The notes: generated by a model not told the origin, from the sequence alone. Numbered from the stretch's first letter, positions 858 through 6,865 are shown. The stretch: 6,935 nt of DNA from Candidatus Iainarchaeum sp. (GCA_028693335.1 JAQUVR010000030.1:1-6935); one strand, 5' to 3'. Translations and numbers: made by a program.

Positions 858-1379
858 TTATTTAATAGATCTTTGACTCATTTTTTCAATAATTTCTGAT
901 ATTTCTGATTGTGATTTTAAATTGTATTTTTTAATAATTTCTTTTTTATTAAAGCTTTTAGATGTTATTTTTTTTTCAATGAAATTCTTAAATAAAAAAT
1001 AATTTGTTTCTTTTTCTGATATTTTTTTCTTAGAAATAAAGCAAATGAAATGATCTTTGTCATAAACTAATTTTTCTAATTTACTTAATTGATCTGTACA
1101 ATTAATGGTTAATAACATTTCTTTATTAAGATCATTTGATACATTTAATTTATCCGAAATTCTGTGTTTTGTAATAAAAATCGCCCAGTTTAGATGATCT
1201 GTACTATATACCAAAGATTGAGGGATTATTGCAATTTCTAGATTTTTGAGCTTTTTTTGTACTTTTATCTCTTCAATCCTTTTTAAATAATTTTCTATAG
1301 TAATATTAGTTATAGATCCATAGATATATTTAATATAGATCTTGTTATTCTCTAAATCAAAACAAAAATCATTGTTCAT
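858..1379 (-). CDS. cgi121: Probable KEOPS complex subunit Cgi121-like protein
   Basis: 173-aa ORF, a typical size for the family. The central segment IAIIPQSLVYSTDHLNWAIFITKHRISDKLNVSNDLNKEMLLTINCTDQLSKLEKLV...HFICFI follows the archaeal Cgi121 pattern as I recall it from M. jannaschii (ILNADVVATKKHVLHAINQA...IAKSFWMEILVRASGQRQIHEAIK...NVCLI). This is a remembered pattern match, not a computed alignment. The gene converges on xpf with only 2 nt between the stop codons. Confidence 0.45.
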   Translation of the reverse strand: MNNDFCFDLENNKIYIKYIYGSITNITIENYLKRIEEIKVQKKLKNLEIAIIPQSLVYSTDHLNWAIFITKHRISDKLNVSNDLNKEMLLTINCTDQLSKLEKLVYDKDHFICFISKKKISEKETNYFLFKNFIEKKITSKSFNKKEIIKKYNLKSQSEISEIIEKMSQRSIK

Positions 1380-1844: not shown

Positions 1845-1918
1845 TTCTTATGTGATCAATCATAAAAAAAACCAAATCACAAAATATTTTTAAAAAAATA
1901 AAAAGTGATCTTGGCAAA

Positions 1919-1950
1919 AAAAAAGAAAGACAAAAAGCGCTTTCTTTTTT
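1919..1950 (+). terminator. Perfect 11-bp A/T-rich inverted repeat ending in a T6 tract; possible rps8e terminator or regulatory hairpin
   Basis: AAAAAAGAAAG (1919-1929) and CTTTCTTTTTT (1940-1950) are exact reverse complements separated by a 10-nt loop (ACAAAAAGCG). More T-runs follow at 1956-1960 and 1967-1974. Only 2 G:C pairs, so the stem is weak. The region is alternatively the coding N-terminus of the next gene (see findings). Confidence 0.3.
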
Positions 1951-1984
1951 AATTCTTTTTTTAGTATTTTTTTTAATAATTTAT

Positions 1985-2434
1985 TTGTTGTTAACAAAGA
2001 CTTTTTTGTATAAACAAATAAACATTTTTTTTGCAGTTACTAGTAGTTTTTTTTTGAGACTTGTTTTTGGAATAAACAACCATTTTATTTATGATTCTTT
2101 TCTTAAAAGTTCAACAATAATCATTTCAAATTTAGAATACCCGTTAATAATAAACAAATTGTGCACAGGTATATTAGAATTTAGTTTGTTGTCTGCTGCA
2201 GTTATTGCATCAAAAGGAATATCTATTTTAAAAAGAATTATTGGTTTTTTGATTTCTATATTGGTGGTTATTGTTTTTAATATTTTTAGAATATCATTTA
2301 CTGGTTACTTAATAATAAACTTAAATTTATTTTGGGCAGAAATATTTCATGGAATATTATTTAGATTATTTTTAGTTATTATTGTAATTGGCACCTATTA
2401 CCTTTGGTTAAAAAAAAACATGCTGTGTGATTAA
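1985..2434 (+). CDS. Miniature archaeosortase/exosortase-family integral membrane protein (putative transpeptidase); 5' end uncertain
   Basis: 149-aa polytopic hydrophobic ORF. It carries the three family signature residues in typical contexts: LIINKLCTGILEF (Cys60, nt 2162-2164), VVIVFNIFRISFTG (Arg102, nt 2288-2290) and AEIFHGILFRLF (His122, nt 2348-2350). The only canonical in-frame start is TTG 1985, and the frame stays open upstream to 1856. Confidence 0.6.
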   Translation: MLLTKTFLYKQINIFFAVTSSFFLRLVFGINNHFIYDSFLKSSTIIISNLEYPLIINKLCTGILEFSLLSAAVIASKGISILKRIIGFLISILVVIVFNIFRISFTGYLIINLNLFWAEIFHGILFRLFLVIIVIGTYYLWLKKNMLCD

Positions 2435-2436
2435 TT

Positions 2437-3267
2437 ATGCCAACAAAAAGACCATCAAAAAATCCAATAACCTTTATTGGTGAAAAAAACAGAATTGTTT
2501 TTACTGATTTAATTCCAACACTTAGAAAAATCCAAAGACAAAAATATGCCATTTTAATTGAGCAAGAAAAAGAAAGATCAAAAGCAGTTACTCAAAAAGT
2601 AAAAGATTTACAAAGAGAAATGGAAAGAAGGTTTTTTACAACAGACCCAAAAACAAAAGCAAGAAAACCATTTAAATTTTCTGATCTCTCTCCAAAAATG
2701 CAAAGAAACCTAGAAAGATTTTTATTTAGAAAAATAAAACAACTGGATCTTTCAACATTTTCAATAAAGCAAAAAGAAGAACTACTGGCAGATGTTAGAA
2801 GATTATTATTTGATATAAAAGCCAAAAAAAATAGAAAACAATTACTCTTGAAAAGCACAGCAAAACAACAACTTTTAGAAGATGTTATGCCTGATTTTAA
2901 TAAATTAAAAGAAAAAGATAAGCGAACAATTAATACCATAATAAACTATAACTTATCACTTTTAACCACAAACACATATATTACAAGTAATGAATATAAT
3001 ATGTTAAGAGAAAAAGTTGTTTTAGAAATTAGAAGGATAAATACCAATTATGTTGTTATAGAAGAAATAAAAAACGAGTTGTTATCAGATCCAACAACAA
3101 AACGAAAATTTGCAGAAATGAGCGAAATAGAAAAACGTAAGAAACTAAAACAACTAGATCAAATAATTCGTTCAAATCCAAGATATGCAACACCCAGTGG
3201 AAGATCTCAAATTGAGCGAACTTTTGCAAGAATTATGGTTGGTGCTAATGTAAAAAAGAATAAATAA
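2437..3267 (+). CDS. Hypothetical Lys/Arg-rich, predicted helical/coiled-coil cytoplasmic protein (orphan)
   Basis: 276-aa ORF whose ATG is 2 nt after the archaeosortase-like stop. SD-like GTGAT (2427-2431) sits 5 nt upstream, inside the 3' end of the preceding gene, so translational coupling is likely. No signal peptide or TM segment, and I recognise no family motif. Confidence 0.65.
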   Translation: MPTKRPSKNPITFIGEKNRIVFTDLIPTLRKIQRQKYAILIEQEKERSKAVTQKVKDLQREMERRFFTTDPKTKARKPFKFSDLSPKMQRNLERFLFRKIKQLDLSTFSIKQKEELLADVRRLLFDIKAKKNRKQLLLKSTAKQQLLEDVMPDFNKLKEKDKRTINTIINYNLSLLTTNTYITSNEYNMLREKVVLEIRRINTNYVVIEEIKNELLSDPTTKRKFAEMSEIEKRKKLKQLDQIIRSNPRYATPSGRSQIERTFARIMVGANVKKNK

Positions 3268-3269
3268 TC

Positions 3270-3653
3270 TTATTTTTCTTCTTTTATTAATTTTTTTACT
3301 TGTTCAACTGTTGTATATTCTAATGGATTAATATTATCTATAATGTACTTCATTTCCTTTAATTCATCAGACTTTGCATATCTTTTAGAAAAAAGTTCTA
3401 ATGTTGCTTCAATATTTTTTACTTTTTGTTCCATATTTTTTAATTTATCTAAAATTTCATTAATTTGTTCATTATTAATTGTAGATCCACTATTACTTGC
3501 ACCATTAACACTAGCAATCTTTTTATTTAATATAAGTATATTTCTACCAAGAATTTTTTCATTATGAACAAGATACTTAATTTTTTGTGAAAGTACAAGT
3601 ATACTTGATTGAAGGGCCTTAATATCTTGTGAGCTTCCTTGATCGTCTGCCAT
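3270..3653 (-). CDS. Hypothetical small coiled-coil protein (helix, Gly/Ser/Asn linker, helix)
   Basis: 127-aa ORF with an acidic N-terminus (MADDQGSSQD) and heptad-like segments on either side of ASVNGASNSGSTINN. No TM or signal peptide. I considered prefoldin beta but the beta-hairpin pattern is absent. Its stop is 2 nt from the stop of the convergent 276-aa gene. Confidence 0.6.
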   Translation of the reverse strand: MADDQGSSQDIKALQSSILVLSQKIKYLVHNEKILGRNILILNKKIASVNGASNSGSTINNEQINEILDKLKNMEQKVKNIEATLELFSKRYAKSDELKEMKYIIDNINPLEYTTVEQVKKLIKEEK

Positions 3654-3883
3654 TTTTTTTCAAATTTTTAAATTGTTTTATAAAAGTGTTCTAATATAAA
3701 ATATATTTGAAAAGTTTATAATAGAATCCTTTTTTTGTAAAAATAGAAATTAACAATCTTTTTAAAGGGTTTGTTTCAAATATATTTATTAATTATACAA
3801 AGTTAATTACAAAAGGATTGTTTAATAACCAAACAGACATTTACCTCATTTTTTTAAAAATAAATTAAAAAAGGAAAAAATTT
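3654..3883. promoter_or_regulatory. 230-nt divergent intergenic/promoter region, the longest non-coding stretch in the window
   Basis: Palindromic TTTTATAAAA at 3676-3685 lies 22 nt upstream of the minus-strand ATG (A at 3653), which is leaderless TATA geometry. An A/T box at about 3851-3870 and a weak SD AGGA (3872-3875, 8 nt spacer) precede ATG 3884. No GC-rich segment suggests a structured RNA. Confidence 0.3.
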
Positions 3884-3955
3884 ATGAACAAAAGAAATAT
3901 GTTTTTGGCAATAATAGCATTGATATTTATATCTATTTTAAATCCAATTAATGCT
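3884..3955 (+). other. Sec-type signal peptide of the surface protein
   Basis: MNKRNMFLAIIALIFISILNPINA / LNF has a basic n-region (KR), a 13-residue hydrophobic core and a small-residue c-region (I-N-A). The cleavage site is estimated by eye. Confidence 0.7.
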
Positions 3956-6865
3956 TTAAATTTTAATATAGACTCATTAGTCATAAGCACAGAATCAGAA
4001 AACACTTATGCATCATTACAATATGGAAACTATTATGATAATGTTTCATTAAGGTTAGGCTTTAGAGCATCAGATTTAACATATGGGCAAAACATACCAG
4101 TAGTGATTACTCCAAAGATTTATGGAATCTCAGATAATGGCCAAATGCAATATCTTTATTCAGCACCACCAGTATACTATACTTTGTATAATACATCTAC
4201 TCAAGAATATTATTATCCAAACATATTCTATTTACAACCACCATATACTGGTTATCAAGTACTAATTGATGCACAAACATTAGTTCCTGCAAATATTTAT
4301 TATGGAGTAAATAATGCTTATGTTTATGTTTCTGGATATCCAACATATTATTATCCAGCAGAGCCAAATGATCCAGATCCAAGTGATCCACAATACCCAG
4401 AAAATGATTGTTTTAATATGAGTTTATCTGGTCAAGGTTCTTTTTATATAAATGAAGATCAAGAAAAGGAATATAGGTTGTATATTGCAAACAACTCTAG
4501 TTTACCATTAACAATTCAATCAGTAACAACAACAAACCCATCAAGATTAGATATAGATGATATTTCTTATCCGCACACAATTTCTGCAAATCAAACAAGA
4601 TATGCTCAAATAGATTTGATTGCTGATTTAGTAAGTAGTAATTATTCTTCATTTTTTGATATTATTGTAAAAGGAAATTATCCTGATGGAACAGTATGTC
4701 AAAAAGCATTTACTGTTGACTATACAATAAATGATAGAAGTTCAAATAATTCAGGAGATTGTTCTGATCTTATCTTAAATGATTTTGAATTTACATTAAA
4801 TGAATTTCAAAATCTTACTCAAGAAATAAGAATTAAGAATGAATCATTAGATTACGAATATGTAATAGATTCAGTAAATATTTATGATGATAGTTATGTT
4901 TCAACAAATGTAATTGATTACCCAAGAAGAATCTATACTAATCAAGCAGACTATTTAAAAATAAAATTTGAAGCAGAAGATATAACAAGAGATCTTACAA
5001 GAAACCTAGATTTAAGAGTAAATGGATATTTGAGAAGATCAGGAAGAGAAGATAAAAGATGTAATATTAGATCAAATATAAAAATAAATTTAATTGATCA
5101 AGGAAGTGTAAACTATTCTCCTGCAACAAGCTGTAGCAACATAAAAATATTTGCACCAAATATTTCACAATTAGAAAACACATTATCAAATTATGGAAAA
5201 GACAATGGTTTTTTTATAGTTAATAATTCTAATCAAAAATTTACAATAAGTTATCTTTTAGTAAACGATAACACTAGTTATGCTGATTTAAAAGTAAATA
5301 ATTATAGTTCAATGATATATCCATCAGCAACATTACCAATAAACTTTGAATTAACAACAACAGAAGTAGCAACAACTCAAAGCACAAATGCAAAAGTTGA
5401 GGTTAGTGGAAGGTTTGATGATGGAACTGTTTGTAATTATTCAAATATTAATAAAACCTTTACAATAAACATTCTAGATTCACAAGACAATTATTGTGGA
5501 TCTGTTGGAGTTTTATCTCAAAGGGTTAATGAAGGAAGATCTGATGTTGTTTTGTTTAATAATACTAATAAAAAATTCTATGTAACCAATATATTATTTC
5601 AAGAAAAATATAAACTAGATGCAAGAGTTGATACTTCTCAACACACAATCTCAAAAAACAGTTCATTATCAATTCCAGTTAGTTTTACAGGAGATGGTTC
5701 CTTACAAATGATTGTTTCAGGGAAATTTGAGGATGGCAAAGCATGTAATTATACTCAAACAACACCTGGTATTTTAAGTGTTAGTGGAAATATAAATAAT
5801 TCAACCTATAATTTTTCAGAAAATAATTGTTCATTAGATCTTACAATTCCAAATATTTATGAAATTGATGATGCTATAGAAAAATATGTTTTAACTGTAA
5901 AAAACTATAGTAAAAATTCAGGAAAAATAGTAATCTATAGTAATGGAGCAACCATTAACCCTGCAATTATTTATTTAGACGGTTATGATAATTTTAATCA
6001 AGAACTAACATTGTCAAACTTTAGTAATCCAACAGCAGTAAACTATTCTGTACAATTAAATAACTGTAATGCTTTTTTAAGAAATACAACACTTGCAAAT
6101 AAATTAATTACAGAAAACAGAATAGAACTAGTATCTTATCCACAAAAATACACACCAGTAAATTCTATGATCGCATTTAGTGTTTTATTAAAAAATGATT
6201 TTTCAGAAAATAAAAATCTATTAATAAAATTAGGTGGCTTTCCTAACAATTGGCAAACAGATTCAAAAAATATAACTGTTAGTTCCAGAAGTACAGAAAG
6301 TATAACCTTAACCGGAACAATACCACAAGATGTTATTGGTGTTTATGATGGGCATATAGAAGTTTATGAAAATAATTTGTTAATCGAAAGTAAGCCAATT
6401 ACAATTGATCTAACCATAAAAGATGCCGATCTTTCTGTTGATAATAAAAAAATAGATTCTATAAGTAAATCAAATGGATATCAATTAAAATTTGATTTGA
6501 CAAACAATACAGAATTTAGAAAAGATGTTATAATTAGTTTTGATCTTGATAATTCTTGGGTAATTGATGGAGAAAAAAATATTGAACTATTACCAAAAGA
6601 AAAAAAAGAAATTATATTTAAGTTAATGCCAACAACAAAAAAAGAAGATCAAAGTTTTAGACTGATCTTTAAAGAAAAAGGTACTGATAAAATTTTATTA
6701 GAAGAAAATATTTTATTAGAACAAAAGAAAGATACCTTTGGCCTTACTGGTTTTTTAACTTTGGGGCTTAATAGTTGGATTGGTTTTTTAGTTTTAATAA
6801 TTATTGTTATTATAGTAATTATTTATATTTTAAAAAAAAAGAAAAAGAAAAAAATATTTATTTAA
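3884..6865 (+). CDS. Large secreted, heavily sequon-decorated multi-domain cell-surface protein (S-layer/adhesin-like) with a C-terminal tripartite anchor or sorting signal
   Basis: Uninterrupted 993-aa ORF with an N-terminal signal peptide and beta-strand-like alternating hydrophobic patterns throughout. I hand-counted 30 N-x-S/T sequons (x not Pro). There are 10 Cys residues, all in regular pairs, and a C-terminal TM helix plus K7 tail. Confidence 0.9.
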   Translation: MNKRNMFLAIIALIFISILNPINALNFNIDSLVISTESENTYASLQYGNYYDNVSLRLGFRASDLTYGQNIPVVITPKIYGISDNGQMQYLYSAPPVYYTLYNTSTQEYYYPNIFYLQPPYTGYQVLIDAQTLVPANIYYGVNNAYVYVSGYPTYYYPAEPNDPDPSDPQYPENDCFNMSLSGQGSFYINEDQEKEYRLYIANNSSLPLTIQSVTTTNPSRLDIDDISYPHTISANQTRYAQIDLIADLVSSNYSSFFDIIVKGNYPDGTVCQKAFTVDYTINDRSSNNSGDCSDLILNDFEFTLNEFQNLTQEIRIKNESLDYEYVIDSVNIYDDSYVSTNVIDYPRRIYTNQADYLKIKFEAEDITRDLTRNLDLRVNGYLRRSGREDKRCNIRSNIKINLIDQGSVNYSPATSCSNIKIFAPNISQLENTLSNYGKDNGFFIVNNSNQKFTISYLLVNDNTSYADLKVNNYSSMIYPSATLPINFELTTTEVATTQSTNAKVEVSGRFDDGTVCNYSNINKTFTINILDSQDNYCGSVGVLSQRVNEGRSDVVLFNNTNKKFYVTNILFQEKYKLDARVDTSQHTISKNSSLSIPVSFTGDGSLQMIVSGKFEDGKACNYTQTTPGILSVSGNINNSTYNFSENNCSLDLTIPNIYEIDDAIEKYVLTVKNYSKNSGKIVIYSNGATINPAIIYLDGYDNFNQELTLSNFSNPTAVNYSVQLNNCNAFLRNTTLANKLITENRIELVSYPQKYTPVNSMIAFSVLLKNDFSENKNLLIKLGGFPNNWQTDSKNITVSSRSTESITLTGTIPQDVIGVYDGHIEVYENNLLIESKPITIDLTIKDADLSVDNKKIDSISKSNGYQLKFDLTNNTEFRKDVIISFDLDNSWVIDGEKNIELLPKEKKEIIFKLMPTTKKEDQSFRLIFKEKGTDKILLEENILLEQKKDTFGLTGFLTLGLNSWIGFLVLIIIVIIVIIYILKKKKKKKIFI
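4151..4408 (+). other. Tyr/Pro-rich low-complexity segment ending in an acidic Pro-Asp linker
   Basis: Residues 90-171 contain 20 Tyr in 82 residues (YYY at 109-111 and 155-157), and residues 90-175 contain 13 Pro. The segment ends PAEPNDPDPSDPQYPEND immediately before the first Cys-bracketed module. Confidence 0.8.
4409..6067 (+). repeat. Five tandem, highly diverged protein modules of about 111-124 aa, each bracketed by one Cys pair (predicted disulfide-stapled Ig-like beta-sandwiches)
   Basis: Cys residues sit at 176/272, 293/393, 417/517, 538/621 and 649/728, with TGT codons at nt 4409, 4697, 4760, 5060, 5132, 5432, 5495, 5744, 5828 and 6065. In modules 1, 3 and 4 the second Cys lies in a recurring motif: KGNYPDGTVC, SGRFDDGTVC, SGKFEDGKAC. 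Each module has a core of the type x-I/V-x-N-x-S-x-x-x-hydrophobic-x-I. The repeat is visible at protein level only; there is no DNA-level repeat. Confidence 0.7.
6107..6724 (+). other. Two Cys-free CARDB/NEW3-like beta-sandwich domains
   Basis: LIKLGGFPNNWQTDSKNITVSSRSTESITLTGTIPQDVIGVYDGHIEVY and ISFDLDNSWVIDGEKNIELLPKEKKEIIFKLMPTTKKEDQSFRLIF both follow the pattern P/D-x-x-W-...-I-x-L-x-P/S-x-x-x-x-I-x-L/F-x-x-x-P. That pattern is typical of CARDB/NPCBM-associated NEW3-type domains in archaeal surface proteins. Pattern-level call only. Confidence 0.4.
6740..6862 (+). other. C-terminal tripartite element: GLTGF motif, about 26-residue TM helix, K7 basic cluster (candidate archaeosortase recognition signal)
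   Basis: The C-terminus reads DTF-GLTGF-LTLGLNSWIGFLVLIIIVIIVIIYIL-KKKKKKK-IFI-stop. Its layout matches PGF-CTERM/PEP-CTERM-type signals: short signature motif, hydrophobic helix, then a basic tail at the extreme C-terminus. The signature is TGF rather than PGF. Confidence 0.5.

Follow-up and report, generated by a model that had tools for sequence, protein, structure and literature searches.

Does the small archaeosortase-like enzyme of a DPANN archaeon process the large secreted protein encoded a short distance downstream, and do the genes between the two belong to the same system? These questions are raised by a 6,935-bp stretch of DNA (G+C about 25%) from Candidatus Iainarchaeum sp. (GCA_028693335.1 JAQUVR010000030.1:1-6935), the whole of which is referred to here as the window. 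The original prediction, made from the sequence alone, was of a four-gene system in which a half-size archaeosortase and a giant surface protein act together with two uncharacterized partners. Our analysis favors a smaller unit. By analogy with characterized archaeosortases, we think it rather probable that the locus encodes an enzyme-substrate sorting pair of an Iainarchaeota (DPANN) archaeon, and that the two genes in between are neighbors, probably not components of the sorting system.

The enzyme and its candidate substrate

The features on which this reading leans are the following.

1850-2434, plus strand: archaeosortase-family gene of about 194 codons, matching TIGR04178, with homologues aligning across the whole frame from 1856
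1853-1855, plus strand: in-frame TGA at codon 2 of the sortase gene, kept in the closest relatives
2162-2164, plus strand: codon of the invariant Cys103 (numbered in a 192-residue frame; LCTG motif), the presumed nucleophile
2288-2290, plus strand: codon of the invariant Arg145 (FNIFRI motif)
2348-2350, plus strand: codon of the invariant His165 (FHGxLFR motif)
2363-2365, plus strand: codon of the nearly invariant Arg170 (FHGxLFR motif)
2437-3267, plus strand: gene for a basic, helical-looking, non-membrane protein of 276 residues
3270-3653, minus strand: gene for a cytosolic coiled-coil protein of 127 residues, specific to Iainarchaeota
3654-3883: divergent intergenic region of 230 bp between the 127-residue protein gene and the large gene
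3884-6865, plus strand: gene for a secreted surface protein of 993 residues, the probable sortase substrate
6743-6763, plus strand: C-terminal motif LTGFLTL (residues 954-960)
6764-6832, plus strand: C-terminal hydrophobic helix of 23 residues (residues 961-983)
6833-6853, plus strand: Lys7 tail KKKKKKK (residues 984-990)

The open reading frame (ORF) 1985-2434, to which the archaeosortase had originally been assigned, matches TIGR04178, the exosortase/archaeosortase signature, at 41 bits against a cut-off of 23 (E=1.7e-10), and the 192-residue frame does so at 40.1 bits; the family assignment held, with the gene start corrected to 1850. The match to PF09721 (15.5 bits) fell under its cut-off of 25.7. 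Hydropathy analysis indicates a polytopic protein, with five segments above threshold and one weaker one. All 18 aligned members of the family share Cys103, Arg145 and His165, with Arg170 conserved to at least 90%; among 114 more distant small sortases, Arg145 and His165 are again invariant and Cys103 is at least 90% conserved. Cys173, Arg214 and Arg253 are the critical residues of Haloferax volcanii ArtA (PMC9263693), and a Cys/Arg/His triad has been inferred for the exosortase/archaeosortase superfamily (10.1101/2023.06.07.544157). Family match and residue conservation establish, on sequence grounds, that the gene at 1850-2434 encodes a true member of this superfamily with its presumed catalytic residues intact.

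Within the superfamily, the window enzyme passes none of the named subfamily models in NCBIfam: it gave no match to the ArtA model (TIGR04125) at E<=1, scored 9.7 bits against ArtD (TIGR04175; cut-off 125) and 14.4 bits against pacearchaeosortase (NF033505; cut-off 80). Searched against 1.84 billion representative proteins, the sortase profile returned 428 matches at E<=1e-3 and only two at E<=1e-30, so the window sortase belongs to a narrow subfamily, itself part of a large signature-bearing set of hundreds of proteins, mostly 160-230 residues long. All 114 sampled distant sortases match TIGR04178 at E<=0.001, and against the named subfamily models they give weak E-values only, the best being about 1e-17 (ArtE); many of them match ArtD, ArtE, XrtG, XrtH or XrtX weakly. 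By these profile comparisons, the enzyme belongs to a narrow, so far unnamed archaeosortase subfamily. Its small size had been presented as distinctive, a point not borne out: size is ordinary here because hundreds of proteins of 160-230 residues carry the signature, and the ArtD, pacearchaeosortase and other NCBIfam models themselves cover 150-170 positions. A sequence search of the sortase profile against solved structures found a chance match only. One protein from the representative search (P0196; 1,102 residues) has an N-terminal small sortase domain (residues 6-181) followed by about 900 residues rich in Gly, Ala and Ser; it may be a genuine fusion or a product of faulty gene calling.

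The candidate substrate has a signal-peptide-like N-terminal helix, 30 N-glycosylation sequons (N-x-S/T) and 10 cysteines. These lie at residues 176, 272, 293, 393, 417, 517, 538, 621, 649 and 728. The two members of each successive pair stand about 80-100 residues apart, which suggests that five consecutive beta-sandwich domains each hold one disulfide. An AlphaFold2 model built on a 13-sequence alignment (mean predicted local distance difference test score 69, domains mostly 75-90) shows an all-beta fold of about eight tandem sandwich domains plus one C-terminal helix. A Foldseek search with this model returned only generic arrays of immunoglobulin-like (Ig-like), ASH and macroglobulin domains (hydin, alpha-2-macroglobulin) at TM-scores near 0.1, and sequence searches of Pfam, NCBIfam and the PDB gave no match.

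As had been predicted, the protein ends in a motif, a transmembrane segment and a poly-Lys tail, and this ending is kept in its orthologues. The pattern L-[TS]-[GA]-F-[FL]-[TSG]-[LF], followed by a transmembrane helix and a K/R cluster, occurs in 16 orthologues from related loci and 12 from a protein search; the sole variant, in locus L005, reads F-A-G-F-L-T-L, with Ala replacing Thr/Ser. In its narrower form, L-[TS]-[GA]-F-[FL]-[TS]-[LF], the motif fits all but one of the 29 orthologues examined, the misfit again being an Ala for Thr/Ser. The orthologues in related loci are 880-1,050 residues long and 31-41% identical, and the motif is the best conserved part of their C-terminal region, the flanks being variable. 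The gene at 3884-6865 encodes, then, a Sec-type secreted protein made of Ig-like beta-sandwich domains in series, with a conserved motif, transmembrane and basic end. In about 350 kb of related loci, no ORF other than the large-protein orthologues carries the motif with a transmembrane helix and basic tail, and a metagenome scan for the motif, made with a narrow alignment, returned one orthologue fragment.

If the two proteins work as ArtA and the PGF-CTERM proteins of Haloferax do, the C-terminal helix would keep the large protein in the membrane after export. The sortase would then recognize L-[TS]-[GA]-F-[FL] at the point of membrane entry and remove the helix and basic tail through its cysteine, and the new C-terminus would be joined to a membrane lipid, leaving the large protein lipid-anchored at the cell surface.

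Gene order and the genes in between

The sortase-like protein led to genomes of Iainarchaeota/Diapherotrites (DPANN), including the complete genome of Candidatus Forterrea multitransposorum (CP045477.1). Related loci were collected by exact-protein look-ups and a scan of species-representative genomes (15 species), together with several metagenome contigs, and what we say of linkage covers the contigs that extend far enough. In every one of these the sortase gene lies 0.6-2.7 kb from the gene of the large protein. The order of the locus is XPF, Cgi121 (minus strand; unmatched in six loci), rpS8e, sortase, zero to two variable genes, the 127-residue protein gene (minus strand), an optional gene for a Tyr-rich protein, the large protein gene and the rpL3 operon. 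In the window, the genes that precede the sortase are the following.

1-177: partial ORF with a sub-threshold match (16.6 bits) to the YafQ-toxin family
184-855: XPF/Hef-type nuclease gene
858-1379, minus strand: ORF with a weak Cgi121 match
1437-1844: rpS8e gene

Sortase and large protein stay close even though the genes between them turn over. Haft takes regular co-occurrence as nearby genes as the mark of a dedicated system (10.1101/2023.06.07.544157), and the sortase and large protein co-occur in this way, with the caveat that their whole neighborhood is syntenic. Across the related loci, identities are 53-71% for rpS8e, 65-85% for the 127-residue protein and, beyond the closest clade, 45-57% for the sortase. 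Because the enzyme family, the synteny and the C-terminal motif are all met with again in 15 species-level genomes, as well as in several metagenome contigs, we take the arrangement to be more than chance.

Several observations weigh against a sorting pair. The block from XPF, Cgi121 and rpS8e through to the rpL3 operon is syntenic as a unit in all loci, so that linkage alone is weak evidence and may reflect inherited gene order. The sortase and large genes nowhere stand side by side; between them lie one to four genes, always including the 127-residue protein gene on the opposite strand. None of the curated CTERM models scores an orthologue tail above its cut-off: PEF-CTERM gives 13 bits (cut-off 23), PGF-CTERM no match, and NF033506 6.2 bits for one orthologue tail (cut-off 110) and no match with the full-length large protein. 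In the Forterrea clade (L003/L009/L020, L013, L016, L017 and L002), 50-70 extra charged, cytoplasmic residues follow the transmembrane helix and basic cluster, which is unusual for a sorting signal meant for discarding. Finally, a TGA stands at codon 2 of the sortase gene in this metagenome-assembled genome and its closest relatives, as discussed below.

The first of these points also favors an explanation by descent alone, in which the sortase acts generally, on several proteins encoded elsewhere and perhaps on the large protein too, or in which the helix is a permanent anchor and the motif structural. The enzyme gene is co-directional with rpS8e and tightly spaced behind it, a conserved upstream region of its own precedes the large gene, and several further membrane-anchored proteins of very large size have been reported from the Forterrea genome (PMC5905446). 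Such an account fits less well with the placement of the motif, directly against the transmembrane helix and ahead of a basic cluster, exactly as in exosortase/archaeosortase signals; with its standing as the most strongly conserved stretch at the C-terminal end; and with the lack of any other candidate target among the roughly 350 kb of loci examined. We regard explanation by descent alone as rather unlikely, and continue to prefer an enzyme acting on its large neighbor.

The two genes between them had been taken for partners of the system, and their basic description proved accurate: both are orphans with no predicted transmembrane segment and no family match (PHROGs included), the 276-residue ORF begins 2 nt beyond the stop codon of the sortase gene, and the 127-residue protein gene runs on the minus strand, divergently from the large gene across the 230-bp spacer. 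The family searches of the four proteins bore out the sortase, through TIGR04178, and found no family for the other three.

A four-gene module, with the 276- and 127-residue proteins as accessory partners in chaperoning, lipid-donor handling or regulation, draws on the position of the 276-residue gene directly behind the sortase, which is kept in seven loci, and on the presence of the 127-residue protein gene between enzyme and target in every locus, where it shares the conserved divergent spacer with the target gene. For the 276-residue gene it is largely refuted by the distribution of that family, which occurs in one clade only (the window, L001, L007, L008, L011, L012 and L018), with homologues 30-60% identical apart from the near-identical L001 (98.6%). 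Elsewhere its slot holds a 207-residue protein with a faint thymidylate-kinase match (L002), a minus-strand gene of about 100 residues (Forterrea clade) or a 531-residue secreted protein (L006), or is empty (L005, L010 and L014). Since it is restricted to one clade and otherwise swapped or lost, the 276-residue gene is probably outside the sorting system. The expectation of a conserved four-gene neighborhood was thus borne out for the sortase, the 127-residue protein gene and the large gene, which are always near one another, and failed for the 276-residue gene.

Nor does the 127-residue protein behave as a partner would. It is far more conserved than either enzyme or target, and in distant Diapherotrites its homologues (40-45% identity, 157-183 residues) are encoded divergently from PolB, with no sortase within 10 kb. 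Both intervening proteins are predicted to be soluble and cytosolic, and neither resembles PssA or PssD, the known helpers of ArtA (PMC9263693). We consider the four-gene module highly improbable. The position of the 127-residue protein gene is best explained by gene order, and its product is a conserved neighbor rather than a demonstrated partner. A weaker addition to the bolder, less likely version of the sorting pair described below is that this coiled-coil protein may be a cytosolic factor tied to the expression or export of the envelope protein.

The 127-residue protein is among the most conserved gene products of the window and is present throughout Iainarchaeota/Diapherotrites. Its family comprises 105 homologues, those of similar length (about 127-152 residues) being 62-84% identical and the longer, more distant ones (154-183 residues) 34-48% identical, and two blocks are nearly invariant: A-L-x-S-S-...-N-E-K-I-L-x-R-N and E-x-K-x-x-x-D-x-x-N-P. 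Its AlphaFold2 model consists of four helices; Foldseek found no match for this model, and profile searches of the PDB matched generic coiled coils only.

The spacer at 3654-3883 contains two blocks conserved in nine diverged loci. The first reads CTTTTTAAAGG.TTTG, and the second, TATTTATTAAT.A.ACAAAGTTAAT, lies about 90 nt upstream of the large-gene start. They are probably TATA/B-recognition-element-type promoter elements of the 127-residue protein gene and the large gene; alternatively they may belong to an RNA element, though Rfam gave nothing. Scans of the 6,935-bp window for Rfam families and tRNAs found none, and the repeats within it are low-complexity, AT-rich matches.

Several clades have, immediately before the large gene, a gene for an extremely Tyr-rich secreted protein of 118-144 residues (DFDVTDISYSYV...YPYYPN...) (L002 11747-12136; L003 11443-11799; L006 12754-13188; equivalents in L013, L014, L016, L017 and L020). 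The window lacks this gene. We considered whether the N-terminus of the window's large protein might be a fused copy of it and found no real similarity. At the other end of the locus, where the window has the short ORF at 1-177, the related neighborhood in L006 holds a ribbon-helix-helix antitoxin paired with a ParE/YafQ toxin. Further afield, locus L025 (749-3655) encodes a more distant sortase of 178 residues and, after 84 nt, a secreted protein of at least 762 residues that runs off the contig, so a small sortase beside a big secreted protein may recur in other lineages. Another locus with a more distant small sortase, L026, has no obvious target, and a third, L024, was too short to be of use.

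The start of the sortase gene

The ORF finder calls only 1985-2434 for the sortase (TTG start, 149 residues). Apart from one 108-residue fragment, homologues in a large protein collection are 173-211 residues long, and they align with the window frame back to 1856, across a conserved Lys-rich N-terminus and the first transmembrane helix. Because the relatives have this length and the frame is open to the ATG at 1850, we judge the 149-residue call to be truncated; by this alignment the gene extends to ATG 1850, which corresponds to the start of the orthologous sortase genes and lies 5 nt past the rpS8e stop codon. A frameshift from GTG 1905 was considered as the cause of the missing N-terminus and set aside, since the relatives show a continuous frame from 1850.

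The extended frame contains the TGA at codon 2. The 5' end of the gene reads ATG-TGA-TCA in the window (1850-1855) and in L001 (2434-2439), and TTG-TGA-TCA in L007 (about 9951-9956), whose protein is 77% identical. No in-frame ATG, GTG or TTG occurs between 1856 and 1984. TGA behaves as a stop codon elsewhere in these genomes, and recoding as Trp was rejected: their long genes have no internal TGA, and some of their genes terminate in TGA.

One explanation would be that the sortase gene is a pseudogene in this organism, inactivated by the codon-2 stop, and that no processing takes place. The lack of a canonical in-frame start before 1985 agrees with this, as does the fact that a protein begun there would miss its first transmembrane helix. 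Set against it are the retention of the start-TGA arrangement down to 77% protein identity, the intact catalytic residues, and the N-terminal region downstream of the TGA, which is conserved at the protein level in relatives and differs by an in-frame indel of three codons. In view of that conservation and the in-frame indel, we take the region to be translated and under selection, and think it quite unlikely that the gene is inactive. The start-TGA could instead be a conserved start-stop element or a site of UGA read-through, or translation may begin at a non-canonical start.

A bolder version of the sorting pair follows from this arrangement. It holds that a minimal sortase (about 190 residues) is strictly dedicated to a single main envelope protein and co-transcribed with rpS8e, and that in one clade it is perhaps throttled by an ATG-TGA element needing UGA read-through or a non-canonical start. 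We regard the full combination as quite unlikely; if true, the ATG-TGA throttle would be a form of translational control so far undescribed in sorting enzymes.

The same codon appears to have affected public records. The public sortase proteins P0001-P0003 begin with 'MW', and the public L001 sequence (gene 2434-3018) does not translate to the query. Most simply, the 'MW' start is a gene-caller artefact, a code-4 model having been picked for low-GC contigs. In L001, the XPF gene (486-1439) is likewise called as 317 residues, apparently an upstream ORF read through TGA into XPF. Public gene calls on these low-GC contigs thus appear to read TGA as Trp, and the protein databases consequently contain some mistranslated entries for this lineage.

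Relation to known sorting systems

The kind of system that we propose is already known, and what is new here is the enzyme subfamily and, judged from the conserved C-terminal ends, the flavor of sorting signal. ArtA is about 300 residues long; the window enzyme, at about 190, is smaller. ArtA and its PGF-CTERM targets in Haloferax resemble the window pair in enzyme superfamily and in the conserved Cys/Arg(/His/Arg) residues, and likewise combine a large Ig-like surface target with a G-F motif abutting the transmembrane helix and a basic tail (PMC6098224, PMC9263693). The window motif differs in having no Pro (TGF, SGF or SAF, not PGF), and no pssA or pssD lies near the window sortase. ArtA has many targets, whereas one nearby target was seen at the window locus.

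Among DPANN archaea, the closest counterpart is pacearchaeosortase (NF033505), which is also small (a profile of 167 positions). Pacearchaeosortase and its target are encoded side by side. The corresponding model NF033506, PACE-CTERM-PROT, is described as a 'putative S-layer protein' and its name implies a C-terminal sorting signal, so the names of the two models indicate a like system in another DPANN lineage. The window pair differs in phylum (Iainarchaeota, not Pacearchaeota), in its motif and in the fold family of its target. Other short subfamilies of similar length, namely ArtD (a profile of 150 positions), ArtE, XrtG, XrtH and XrtX, share the same signature domain. In the dedicated systems of Haft, for example JDVT-CTERM with MrtJ, enzyme and target are regularly encoded nearby, as here; in contrast, the genes of the window type are never adjacent, and MrtJ-type enzymes are an unrelated protease family.

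In full-text literature searches, no account of archaeosortase sorting in Iainarchaeota turned up. Since the principle is known from ArtA and PGF-CTERM, and a similarly named pair of models exists for DPANN, the advance is an incremental one. As one of the smaller enzymes in its superfamily, with no solved-structure match by sequence search, the sortase may offer a compact subject for structural work. The C-terminal motif of the large protein could be turned into a model for annotating such families.

DPANN archaea live attached to hosts, and to our knowledge their surface proteins are almost entirely uncharacterized. The 993-residue protein probably serves this archaeon as its main envelope (S-layer-like) or host-contact protein; it is a single-copy, secreted Ig-like array with many sequons, a conserved upstream region and adjoining ribosomal operons, which may hint indirectly at an S-layer-like role. 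The locus described here points to the likely main surface protein of a whole lineage within Iainarchaeota, Candidatus Forterrea included, and to the enzyme that probably anchors it to lipid.

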